Shown here in pieces: positions 38,001 through 41,122 of a stretch of DNA of 64,000 nucleotides. The stretch is from assembly GCF_044324785.1 (NCBI RefSeq), contig NZ_CP172127.1, one strand, 5' to 3'. The stretch is from Escherichia coli (GTDB lineage: Bacteria > Pseudomonadota > Gammaproteobacteria > Enterobacterales > Enterobacteriaceae). Made by a program: the position numbers. Each line of letters begins with the position of its first letter. Positions within the stretch are counted from its first letter, which is position 1.

Positions 38001-41000
38001 CTATTCGATGAGCGTCAACCTGTGGCCGCAGTGGTTCCCGATGGAAGCGCGACATCTTTATTACGAAGCCAGCGCGATGATTATCGGTCTGATCAATCTC
38101 GGTCATATGCTGGAAGCGCGCGCACGTCAGCGTTCTTCAAAGGCGCTGGAGAAATTACTCGATTTAACCCCACCGACGGCGCGCCTGGTCACCGACGAAG
38201 GTGAAAAAAACGTGCCGCTGGCAGATGTTCAGCCAGGTATGTTACTGCGCCTGACGACCGGCGACCGTGTGCCGGTAGATGGTGAGATTACCCAGGGCGA
38301 AGCGTGGCTGGATGAAGCGATGCTGACGGGCGAACCTATCCCGCAGCAAAAAGGCGAAGGCGATAGCGTCCATGCCGGGACAGTGGTACAGGACGGCAGT
38401 GTGCTGTTTCGTGCCAGTGCGGTCGGCAGCCATACTACGCTGTCACGGATCATTCGCATGGTGCGACAGGCCCAGAGCAGCAAGCCAGAAATCGGTCAAC
38501 TGGCGGATAAAATCTCCGCCGTGTTTGTGCCGGTAGTGGTAGTCATTGCGCTGATCAGTGCGGCAATCTGGTATTTCTTTGGTCCGGCACCGCAGATTGT
38601 CTATACCCTGGTGATTGCCACCACGGTGCTGATTATCGCCTGTCCGTGTGCGCTGGGACTGGCGACGCCGATGTCGATTATTTCGGGCGTCGGGCGGGCG
38701 GCTGAGTTTGGTGTGCTGGTGCGGGACGCCGACGCGCTGCAACGCGCCAGTACGCTCGACACCGTGGTGTTCGATAAAACCGGGACGCTGACCGAAGGGA
38801 AGCCGCAGGTTGTCGCAGTAAAAACATTTGCTGATGTTGATGAAGCGCAAGCATTGCGTCTGGCGGCGGCGCTGGAGCAAGGTTCCAGCCACCCGCTGGC
38901 ACGGGCGATCCTCGATAAAGCAGGTGATATGCAGCTACCGCAGGTCAACGGTTTCCGCACATTGCGCGGGCTGGGTGTGAGCGGTGAAGCTGAAGGTCAT
39001 GCGGTATTGCTGGGCAATCAGGCGCTGTTAAATGACCAGCAAGTTGATACTAAAGCGATTGAGGCAGATATTTCAGCTCAGGCATCGCAAGGGGCAACGC
39101 CTGTGCTGCTGGCGGTTGACGGGAAAGCGGTGGCCTTGCTGGCAGTACGCGATCCGTTGCGTAGTGATAGCGTGGCGGCGCTGCAACGTCTGCATAAAGC
39201 GGGATATCGTCTGGTGATGTTGACCGGGGATAACCCAACCACCGCCAATGCGATCGCCAAAGAAGCAGGGATTGATGAGGTGATCGCCGGGGTGCTGCCG
39301 GACGGTAAAGCCGAAGCGATCAAACGTCTGCAAAGTGAAGGACGTCAGGTGGCAATGGTGGGCGACGGCATTAACGACGCGCCAGCGCTGGCCCAGGCGG
39401 ATGTCGGTATTGCGATGGGTGGCGGCAGTGATGTTGCCATTGAAACCGCGGCGATTACCCTGATGCGCCATAGCCTGATGGGTGTTGCAGATGCGCTCGC
39501 GATTTCCCGCGCAACGCTGCGCAATATGAAGCAGAACCTGCTCGGTGCGTTTATCTACAACAGCATTGGTATTCCGGTCGCCGCCGGTATTTTGTGGCCG
39601 TTCACTGGAACACTGCTTAACCCGGTGGTTGCCGGAGCGGCAATGGCGCTCTCGTCGATTACCGTAGTGAGTAACGCCAACCGGTTGCTGCGGTTTAAAC
39701 CGAAGGAATGATTGGTATTTACTTAATGCGTTTGTGAGATCCAGTTCTTGTTGCGCTCCTTTTATGAGTAATGCCATATAAAGTGACTGGCGCAGGGAGC
39801 GCGCAGGGGGCGGCCAATCGCCGCCGCCCCCTGCACCCCCGGGCTCTGGCGAACAAAATCGCCGCTGCGCGGTACCCTCAGCTTATCCCTTGCGGCTACC
39901 GGGTCGGGCGCGAGGTAACATCCCTGTAAAACGCGCCCTCAGCCCACATCCATGTGGGCTGCCCCGGCCTTCAGGGAACGCCTCGGCGATTTTGACGCCA
40001 CCAACACCGGTGCAGTCTTTCGTTTCAAAGCAAAAACAATTTTTCGATCATATTTAAGCTACCACTGAACAAGCCTCATAACTCCATTTGCGCCATCCCT
40101 CCCCGCGCGCTAGCATGATATTTCACAAAGGGAGGTCGTATGGATCTGTTGTACCGGGTAAAAACGCTTTGGGCCGCGCTGCGCGGTAATCATTACACCT
40201 GGCCTGCTATCGATATCTCTCTTCCCGGCAATCGCCATTTTCATCTGATCGGCAGTATACATATGGGTAGCCACGATATGGCTCCCCTGCCCACCCGTTT
40301 GCTCAAAAAGCTCAAAAACGCCGATGCGCTGATCGTCGAGGCGGATGTTTCCACCAGCGATACGCCTTTTGTTAATTTGCCTGCCTGCGAGGCGCTGGAA
40401 GAGCGCATTAGCGAGGAGCAACTCCAAAACCTGCAGCACATTAGCCAGGAGATGGGCATTTCTCCGTCGCTCTTTTCTACCCAACCGCTGTGGCAAATCG
40501 CGATGGTTCTTCAGGCGACGCAGGCACAAAAACTGGGGCTGCGGGCAGAATACGGTATCGATTACCAGCTATTGCAGGCGGCGAAGCAACAACATAAACC
40601 CGTGATTGAACTGGAAGGGGCTGAAAACCAGATTGCCATGTTGCTCCAGCTCCCTGACAAAGGACTGGCGCTGCTGGACGATACGCTGACCCACTGGCAT
40701 ACCAACGCACGGTTGCTGCAACAAATGATGAGCTGGTGGCTGAATGCACCTCCGCAAAATAATGATATAACGCTGCCCAATACGTTCAGTCAGTCGCTGT
40801 ACGATGTGCTGATGCATCAGCGAAATCTCGCCTGGCGGGATAAATTACGCGCCATGCCGCCGGGGCGATATGTGGTCGCGGTCGGTGCACTACACCTGTA
40901 TGGAGAAGGGAATTTGCCGCAAATGTTGCGCTAAAAAAATGGCCAATATCGCTATTGGCCCGTCAAAGAGGAATTTCATTTTTTTATTATTATGCCGTCA

Positions 41001-41122
41001 CTTTAAGCGACGGTGTAACTCGATTGTCGCTCAATCTCACCATCCTGCCAATACTCTTAGGCAAGATGACTCTTTTTTTTGGACCGCCATCAGGCGTATG
41101 CTTGCTTCGTTTTTTTGTTTAA

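Follow-up and report, generated by a model that had tools for sequence, protein, structure and literature searches.

The question raised by this locus was whether an 84-nt element lying beside a variable stretch of the Escherichia coli chromosome is an intact gene for the small RNA ChiX. The element is located in a 64,000-nt segment of contig NZ_CP172127.1 (assembly GCF_044324785.1), which we refer to as the window. The initial annotation had assigned positions 40933-41016 to ChiX and proposed two checks, an Rfam scan and an alignment to K-12 chiX; the results of both agreed with the assignment. Specifically, a covariance-model search placed Rfam RF00368 at exactly 41016 to 40933, covering model positions 1 to 83 of 83, with a score of 82.1 bits (the gathering score is 44) and an E value of 1.8e-10 over the whole window. 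Rfam lists ChiX as sroB, and the gene also goes by micM and rybC. In the alignment, the element was identical at 84/84 positions to chiX of K-12 MG1655 (b4585, 507204-507287), and the identity was 100% across 279/279 bp that included chiX with its terminator, the promoter region, the start of ybaK, and the 3' end of ybaP. The window carries chiX on its minus strand, a detail absent from the initial annotation, and the minus-strand sequence, ACACCGUCGCUUAAAGUGACGGCAUAAUAAUAAAAAAAUGAAAUUCCUCUUUGACGGGCCAAUAGCGAUAUUGGCCAUUUUUUU, matches in full the ChiX transcript given in PMC5606850. The match was far above chance level, and the sequence holds nothing that contradicts a ChiX identity. ChiX is an Hfq-dependent, trans-acting small RNA of 84 nt, and we put the probability that its chromosomal gene occupies 40933-41016 on the minus strand at about 0.97.

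The predicted architecture of the RNA consisted of two hairpins, with a stem-loop near the 5' end and a Rho-independent terminator followed by its U tail at the 3' end, and the fold had a z score of -3.9. With transcription starting at 41016 and the 3' end at 40933, the 5' stem-loop (nt 4-22, 40995-41013) has 8 bp and a UUA loop in both the minimum free energy (MFE) and centroid folds. It is followed by an A/U-rich single-stranded linker (nt 23-43, 40974-40994; CAUAAUAAUAAAAAAAUGAAA) and by the 14-nt seed, or base-pairing region (nt 45-58, 40959-40972; UCCUCUUUGACGGG), which was located by target complementarity and the Rfam consensus. The terminator (40933-40960), found by both the terminator scan and the fold, is composed of the hairpin GGCCAAUAGCGAUAUUGGCC at 40941-40960 followed by A and U7 at 40933-40940. 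The claim that ChiX is intact, terminator included, was upheld: the element scores above the Rfam gathering threshold, agrees with K-12 at 84/84 positions, and has the K-12 promoter and terminator. The linker contains the consecutive ARN triplets AAU AAU AAA AAA and is presumed to be where the distal face of Hfq binds; ChiX is described as a Class II small RNA (PMC5606850).

A consensus scan located a promoter-like site at 41023-41051 on the minus strand (-35 TTGGCA, a 17-nt spacer, and -10 GACAAT). This site ends 6 nt upstream of the chiX transcription start, has the same sequence in K-12, and its two hexamers were kept across the Enterobacteriaceae orthologues. The call is a 9/12 match to the consensus, and the scanned region of 2.1 kb showed no enrichment of matches of this kind relative to shuffled sequence. 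We predict that chiX has its own σ70-type promoter in the ybaK-chiX spacer.

The genes around chiX are arranged as in K-12. On one side is ybaP (TraB/GumN family; 40140-40934, plus strand), which appears in the open reading frame (ORF) list and in the K-12 and strain 7/2 annotations. It runs toward chiX, with 2 nt shared between its stop codon and the 3' end of chiX, and about 115 orthologous loci have this convergent geometry. On the other side is ybaK (Cys-tRNA(Pro) deacylase; 41138-41617, plus strand), which was supported by the ORF list, the annotation, and the synteny table; it is divergent from chiX and starts 121 nt upstream of the chiX start. The position of chiX between ybaK and ybaP is stated in PMC4355480. 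A repeat search of the whole window returned only the internal repeats of about 300 nt in a giant adhesin gene, and none was related to chiX.

The proposal that the ybaK-ChiX-ybaP core is conserved also held when it was examined across genomes. The 1478-bp ybaP-chiX-ybaK block occupied one contiguous place in 5422/5426 complete E. coli genomes, and the order ybaK, chiX, ybaP was kept in nearly all of about 118 Enterobacterales species loci. A single copy of chiX was found in 5422 of the 5426 genomes. The chiX sequence was identical in 5011 of these, whereas the block was at least 99% identical in only 1503 genomes, which suggests a stronger constraint on chiX than on its neighbors. Among diverse Enterobacterales loci, 11/11 had an sroB score above the gathering threshold. 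The seed is in upper case (conserved) in the Rfam consensus; its conservation in our orthologue set is partly circular because the seed itself was the pattern used in the orthologue scan. One hit, in a Candidatus Lindowbacteria metagenome-assembled genome (L062), was rejected as a chance match, as it was without ybaK, ybaP, a terminator, or an sroB match.

Covariation supports both ChiX hairpins. In the 5' stem-loop, two-sided changes were observed at all 4 consensus pairs among 48 orthologues. The MAFFT alignment of this hairpin over distant genera was imperfect, and 10 to 14 of the 48 cells per pair appeared broken, mostly through misalignment; for this reason, it was complemented by per-sequence folding, which predicted a 5' hairpin of at least 5 pairs in 97/97 unique orthologous 5' parts. 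In the case of the terminator hairpin, 99.2% of cells were paired across the 48 orthologues, with compensatory A-U to G-C changes in 6. The consensus pairs as a whole were paired in 90.8% of cells, versus 22 to 43% when the partners were slid, and the covariation score was 0.280, versus 0.109 for shuffles (0/500 shuffles reached 0.280).

Other readings of the 84 nt were weighed against these results. The hairpin and T-run could be the terminator, or simply the 3' end, of the convergent ybaP gene, with no independent RNA gene in this strain. The hairpin does lie directly after ybaP, whose stop codon reaches 2 nt into the element, and a hairpin with an A-run on one side and a T-run on the other might, in principle, act bidirectionally. 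However, only in the minus-strand direction does a T-run come after the hairpin; read along ybaP, the sequence after it is CGTCAAAGAGG, and the terminator scan called a terminator on the minus strand alone. A ybaP terminator would also leave the covarying, conserved 5' hairpin, the invariant seed, and the upstream promoter unexplained, and the identical K-12 locus is an experimentally characterized small RNA gene. We give this reading almost no weight. Equally negligible is the idea that the element encodes a small protein, either from the AUG at ChiX nt 38-40 (MKFLFDGPIAILAIF...), which is located ahead of the seed, or as part of a 94-amino-acid plus-strand ORF (40870-41154) that spans chiX in the ORF list. 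The AUG frame has no Shine-Dalgarno sequence and no stop codon ahead of the terminator, and the triplet is ATG in only 76/118 orthologues, being AAC, AAG, TGA, or CTG elsewhere. The 94-amino-acid ORF crosses the ybaP 3' end, the chiX promoter, and the ybaK start, and it is unannotated in both K-12 and strain 7/2. Conservation of ChiX tracks base pairs rather than codons, and both candidates were rejected as coding.

It is also conceivable, albeit very improbable, that chiX is functionally altered in this lineage, with the exchange of the DNA upstream of ybaP for a TRIP1e repeat changing ybaP transcription and, in turn, ChiX levels. Going upstream from the ybaP start codon, the window departs from K-12 after about 75 nt, so the upstream regulatory region of ybaP differs, and ybaP and chiX converge with a 2-nt overlap. 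Yet chiX itself, its promoter, and its terminator are the same as in K-12. Most genera combine an even shorter copA-ybaP spacer with the same ybaP-chiX geometry, indicating that chiX tolerates many upstream contexts. The preferred reading remains an ordinary, already known ChiX gene, which is a reliable landmark and not a discovery.

Because the RNA is identical, findings made with ChiX in K-12 and Salmonella are applicable here (PMC4098024, PMC7815308, and PMC5606850). Nucleotides 45-56 of ChiX are perfectly complementary, over 12 nt, to the K-12 chiP 5'UTR sequence CGUCAAAGAGGA, which covers the Shine-Dalgarno sequence, and nt 47-58 are perfectly complementary, also over 12 nt, to the K-12 chbB-chbC intergenic sequence CCCGUCAAAGAG. 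The chiP and chb loci are outside the window. That this genome carries them is inferred from the target sites being nearly universal in E. coli, with the chiP site found in 5423/5426 genomes and the chbBC site in 5395/5426. RNAduplex runs with full-length ChiX and targets of 125 to 134 nt gave unrealistically long, loop-filled interactions that were only moderately separated from shuffle controls (6/500 and 1/500), and we therefore relied on the exact 12-nt complementarities.

Based on that literature, ChiX would be synthesized more or less constitutively and would bind Hfq through its U tail and ARN stretch, as expected for a Class II small RNA. Its pairing with the chiP (ybfM) chitoporin mRNA, at the Shine-Dalgarno region, would block translation and promote Rho-dependent termination in chiPQ; dpiB/citA would likewise be repressed. 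When chitosugars induce chbBCARFG, the chbB-chbC intergenic sequence would pair with the same seed as a decoy and trigger ChiX decay, and chiP would be derepressed. ChiZ, an RNA from the chiP 5'UTR, would act as a second ChiX sponge.

The initial annotation had also proposed that the interval beside the conserved core differs, and indeed the copA-ybaP interval (39712-40139) is 428 nt in the window versus 794 nt in K-12. Its left boundary is copA (Cu+ exporting P-type ATPase; 37207-39711, plus strand, from the ORF list and annotation). The alignment indicated that the window interval is without ybaQ and the three REP elements of K-12 and carries instead a dispersed repeat at 39750-40015. This repeat of about 265 bp is rich in GC and has a very stable fold; 38 bp separate it from the copA stop and 124 bp from the ybaP start. 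It had already been published as TRIP1e: its position and length agree with those given by Li et al. 2024 (PMC10888264), and no differences were found. That paper mentions neither that TRIP1e replaces ybaQ and the REP elements nor the resemblance to the TwoAYGGAY motif described below. There are 2 to 8 copies of TRIP1 per E. coli genome, and TRIP1e is about 94% identical to TRIP1a at aqpZ-lysO. The similarity search, which lists the best place per record, yielded no TRIP1b or TRIP1d copies. The polymorphism of the interval sets ybaQ with REP elements against ybaQ plus a toxin gene and against TRIP1e. The window version was present in 346/5426 E. coli genomes, and the full K-12 version was present in 2644/5426.

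As a mildly new side observation, the TRIP1 core appears to share its fold with the TwoAYGGAY RNA motif (Rfam RF01731), although its Rfam score is below threshold. TwoAYGGAY is a multi-copy structured-RNA motif that occurs in Psychromonas, Clostridia, and gut metagenomes, and it is defined by a P1 stem enclosing two hairpins with AYGGAY terminal loops. In TRIP1 cores, loop 1 is exactly AUGGAU, and loop 2 reads either AGGGAU or, in other copies, AAGGAC; Psychromonas members of the original TwoAYGGAY alignment also include AGGGAY loops. Because MAFFT misaligned the TRIP1 and Psychromonas cores, pairing hairpin 1 with hairpin 2, MFE shapes were compared instead, and the shapes of the TRIP1 cores were the same as those of four Psychromonas members. 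The RF01731 gathering score of 43 was not reached by the window core at 39856-39995 on the minus strand (31.5 bits) or by K-12 TRIP1a (30.6 bits), with E values of 0.015 and 0.0086, respectively, in local searches. The TRIP1 core (TRIP1e, about 39856-39995, minus strand) may be an E. coli representative of TwoAYGGAY, a proposal that we hold tentatively and at slightly short of even odds. If it is correct, TRIP1 would be more than a recombination substrate, namely, a structured and conserved RNA or nucleic acid element, and the TRIP1e insertion could add a transcribed structured element beside ybaP-chiX. The apparent similarity in fold could offer an initial structural clue to both elements, and it is peripheral to ChiX.

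Comparisons with known loci placed the window close to two E. coli references. Relative to K-12 (b4585), the 84 nt, the promoter region, the terminator, and the ybaK and ybaP flanks with their relative orientation are the same; the window is the reverse complement of the K-12 orientation, and it differs past ybaP toward copA, where TRIP1e stands in place of ybaQ and REP. Strain 7/2 (NZ_CP023820.1) has a copA-ybaP interval that is 100% identical to that of the window and shares the layout siiEA, TolC-family gene, ybaT, glsA, copA, TRIP1e, ybaP, chiX, ybaK, and ushA. In contrast, an IS1397 follows ybaL in strain 7/2 and the TolC-family gene there is frameshifted, neither of which holds for the window, and chiX of strain 7/2 has a variant of 1 nt within the A-rich linker (AAAAAAAUG to AAAAAUAUG), whereas the window has the K-12 allele. 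The variant is common to Escherichia albertii and some other E. coli. Proteus mirabilis MicM (PMC4355480) has the same seed and terminator architecture and an sroB score above the gathering threshold (66.4 bits, locus L067), but it adjoins copA instead of lying between ybaK and ybaP, and its 5' part differs.

In most E. coli genomes in RefSeq, NCBI PGAP gives no annotation for chiX, and match lists show ybaP only. The value of the finding is practical only, in that chiX now has a verified and exactly placed annotation and is a firm anchor for describing the neighboring copA-ybaP polymorphism. For the organism itself, the chitosugar circuit formed by ChiX, chiP, and chbBC would be expected to operate as in K-12.

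Searching the whole window with the Rfam 15 models, each at its gathering threshold, returned four matches. One of these was the sRNA ChiX, which Rfam lists as sroB (RF00368), at exactly 41016 to 40933; the match covered model positions 1 to 83 of 83 and scored 82.1 bits (gathering score, 44; E = 1.8e-10). The initial annotation had placed an intact ChiX at 40933-41016 and had not stated the strand. The coordinates were correct, and the 84-nt sequence, ACACCGUCGCUUAAAGUGACGGCAUAAUAAUAAAAAAAUGAAAUUCCUCUUUGACGGGCCAAUAGCGAUAUUGGCCAUUUUUUU, was on the minus strand. In addition, the reverse complement of window positions 40880-41160 aligned to the K-12 MG1655 locus with 100% identity over 279 columns. 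The aligned stretch ran from the first ybaK codons through the complete ybaK-chiX spacer, including the predicted promoter, and the sRNA with its terminator to the last ybaP codons. Thus, the sRNA was intact up to and including the terminator, as had been proposed. The K-12 annotation (NC_000913.3) has chiX (b4585) at 507204-507287, flanked by ybaK (b0481) and ybaP (b0482), and 2 nt of chiX fall within the ybaP stop codon. The window sequence was also that of the in vitro ChiX transcript used previously (PMC5606850). What lies here is the known sRNA ChiX, with the K-12 sequence and in its conserved position, and not a new gene.

RNA folding placed a 5' hairpin at ChiX nt 4-22 and a terminator hairpin, followed by U7, at nt 57-76, both on the minus strand and separated by an A/U-rich single-stranded stretch. 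The minimum free energy was -24.1 kcal/mol (z = -3.9 relative to dinucleotide shuffles). A consensus scan also found the terminator, which it called on the minus strand only, and a single promoter-like site, TTGGCA-17 nt-GACAAT (41051-41023, minus strand). This site ended 6 nt before the chiX 5' end, was identical in K-12, and was predicted by consensus only. The linker contained ARN triplets in a row (AAU AAU AAA AAA), a feature in line with the published assignment of ChiX to Class II of the Hfq-binding sRNAs (PMC5606850).

The ChiX 84-mer was present in one copy each in 5422 of 5426 complete E. coli genomes; 5011 matched at 99% identity or more, which means identical at this length, and 411 carried one to four differences. 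RefSeq PGAP annotated ybaP alone under the match, and chiX generally lacked annotation in RefSeq. The conserved ybaK-ChiX-ybaP arrangement that had been described was borne out, as the 1,478-bp block was contiguous at one site in each of the 5422 genomes, although only 1503 of them reached 99% identity over the block. Because chiX was identical in about 92% of genomes and its flanks typically showed 98.2 to 99.3% identity, the data suggest that the sRNA is more tightly constrained than its neighbors. A 1-nt variant in the A-rich linker (AAAAAAAUG to AAAAAUAUG) was common to strain 7/2, Escherichia albertii, and three further loci (L037, L109, and L114), one of which was named E. coli. The window carried the K-12 allele, despite having a copA-ybaP interval identical to that of strain 7/2.

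Species-representative genomes were scanned with a pattern made of the seed (nt 45-58) and the start of the terminator (AAATTCCTCTTTGACNGGCC), which yielded at least 120 loci. The matches listed came from Citrobacter, Enterobacter, Klebsiella, Serratia, Yersinia, Hafnia, Rahnella, Pantoea, Erwinia, Proteus, and other genera. When synteny was assessed by tblastn with the window's YbaK, YbaP, UshA, and CopA proteins, essentially all listed matches had the same geometry: a divergent ybaK 80 to 240 nt upstream of chiX and a convergent ybaP abutting or overlapping its 3' end. The exceptions were L062, L067, and L093. In the Proteus-type loci L067 (Proteus faecis) and L093, chiX was about 110 to 120 nt from copA rather than between ybaK and ybaP, consistent with previous work (PMC4355480). 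L062, from a Lindowbacteria MAG, had no terminator, synteny, or sroB match and was rejected as a chance match. In eleven diverse species, sroB scored above the gathering score in 11 of 11 loci (61 to 89 bits).

RNAalifold recovered both hairpins from 48 distinct orthologues among the matches listed. When pairs were counted on this structure, 90.8% of cells were paired, compared to 22 to 43% when partners were slid by one to three columns, and both-side changes occurred in 64 cells (24.7 expected). The covariation score was 0.280, compared to 0.109 ± 0.012 in shuffles, and was reached by 0 of 500. Each of the four consensus pairs in the 5' stem showed both-side changes, and six sequences had A-U to G-C swaps in the terminator. 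When the listed matches were folded individually, a hairpin with 5 or more pairs was predicted in 97 of 97 unique 5' parts (median z = -2.5). The invariance of the seed in this set was by construction, because the seed was part of the search pattern; the Rfam consensus, which is independent of our scan, also showed a conserved seed.

The interval beside this locus, between copA (37207-39711) and ybaP (40140-40934), had been described as variable, and it was. It measured 428 nt in the window (39712-40139), compared to 794 nt in K-12, where it holds ybaQ (a HigA-like antitoxin gene) and three REP-type elements; the window carried a repeat core at about 39750-40015 instead. Identity to K-12 stopped about 75 nt upstream of the ybaP start and returned only inside copA, whose stop codon was TGA rather than TAA. 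The window-type interval occurred in 346 of 5426 genomes (best match, strain 7/2, NZ_CP023820.1) and the full K-12 type in 2644; in other strains, either the REPs were fewer or ybaQ, there annotated as a HigA-family antitoxin gene, was accompanied by a RelE/ParE toxin gene. Since most other genera among the matches listed had only about 50 to 150 nt between ybaP and copA, the long intervals of E. coli seem to have arisen by later insertion. The 270-nt interval core, found in 2 to 8 copies per E. coli genome (e.g., K-12 aqpZ-lysO), is the published repeat TRIP1e, a 265-bp element located 38 bp after copA and 124 bp before ybaP (Li et al. 2024; PMC10888264). Li et al. reported TRIP1e in 232 of 6725 genomes, described it as a substrate for chromosomal rearrangements, and made no mention of ybaQ being replaced (PMC10888264).

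Might the element be something other than a functional ChiX? That it is merely the terminator of the convergent ybaP is highly improbable, as this would not account for a T-run on the minus strand only, for the covariation in the 5' hairpin, or for the seed and the predicted promoter. A protein-coding element is just as improbable. The internal AUG frame had no stop ahead of the terminator, and its triplet was ATG in only 76 of 118 orthologues among the matches listed; the 94-aa plus-strand ORF at 40870-41154 was unannotated and crossed ybaP, chiX, and the ybaK start. It is also unlikely that the changed neighboring interval altered ChiX function, given that the predicted chiX promoter and the gene were unchanged.

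The TRIP1 core itself resembled the TwoAYGGAY RNA (RF01731). The matches (window 39856-39995, minus strand; L004, the K-12 aqpZ-lysO locus, 2537-2676) were full length, with scores of 31.5 bits for TRIP1e and 30.6 bits for TRIP1a, the K-12 copy. TRIP1 was not assigned to this family because about 31 bits is below the Rfam threshold of 43. TRIP1e had a very stable predicted fold (-144 kcal/mol; z = -5.2, minus strand), and its core was a stem around two hairpins with AUGGAU (first) and AGGGAU (second) loops. The CAUGGAUG and CAGGGAUG loops were common to the TRIP1 core and Psychromonas members of TwoAYGGAY, three TRIP1 cores and four Psychromonas cores had the same two-hairpin shape in their minimum free energy folds, and five TRIP1 copies showed compensatory changes at three pairs. 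In the available part of the original alignment of Weinberg et al., the gammaproteobacterial members were multicopy Psychromonas ingrahamii elements, some with AGGGAY loops, and none of six E. coli accessions looked for was present. In the library searched, no paper making the link to TRIP1 was found, and the results listed by a full-text search for TwoAYGGAY did not include the TRIP1 paper. We regard the link as suggestive.

Several other features of the window were observed. A 6,895-aa ORF (12234-32921, minus strand) consisted of tandem Ig-like repeats of about 300 nt, and its strain 7/2 counterpart is annotated as siiEA, a BapA-related adhesin gene. It was followed by ORFs of 720 aa (10068-12230) and 391 aa (8896-10071), which, judging by size, may encode a type I secretion ABC transporter and a membrane-fusion protein. 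This island lay between cueR (8492-8899) and ybaT (34717-36009), which are adjacent in K-12. A 451-aa ORF (33024-34379, minus strand) was intact, whereas its TolC-family outer-membrane counterpart is annotated as frameshifted in the otherwise near-identical strain 7/2. That strain also has IS1397 in the REP-rich spot between ybaL and gsk, and the window does not. About 3.4 kb of extra DNA (5100-8490), including ORFs of 600 aa (5978-7780) and 140 aa (7866-8288), separated ybbJ (4623-5081) from cueR; these genes are also adjacent in K-12. Rfam matches above the gathering score included two copies of naRNA4, a REP-derived, nucleoid-associated RNA (5132-5209, plus strand; 46696-46773, minus strand), and the dnaX programmed -1 frameshift element (RF00382; 54696-54760, minus strand; 96.8 bits), which is expected inside dnaX.

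ChiX nt 45-56 (UCCUCUUUGACG) were perfectly complementary to CGUCAAAGAGGA in the K-12 chiP 5'UTR, a site that spans the Shine-Dalgarno sequence, and nt 47-58 (CUCUUUGACGGG) were perfectly complementary to CCCGUCAAAGAG in the K-12 chbB-chbC intergenic region. Of 5426 E. coli genomes, 5423 had the chiP target region and 5395 had the chbB-chbC target region; because both regions lie outside the window, we infer their presence in this genome. In the published model, the chitoporin mRNA chiP is under constitutive repression by ChiX together with Hfq. Once chitosugars have induced the chb operon, its chbBC intergenic sequence sequesters ChiX and causes it to decay, so that chiP is derepressed (PMC4098024). 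ChiX pairing also promotes Rho-dependent regulation of chiP, and ChiZ, from the chiP 5'UTR, is a second ChiX sponge (PMC7815308). Since the window RNA is identical to the RNA studied, the published circuit is the best explanation for this element, with a probability of about 0.97. By analogy, the window ChiX would be expressed, bind Hfq, and constitutively block chiP mRNA; when chitosugars induce chb, the chbBC intergenic decoy would lead to ChiX decay and lift the repression of chiP.
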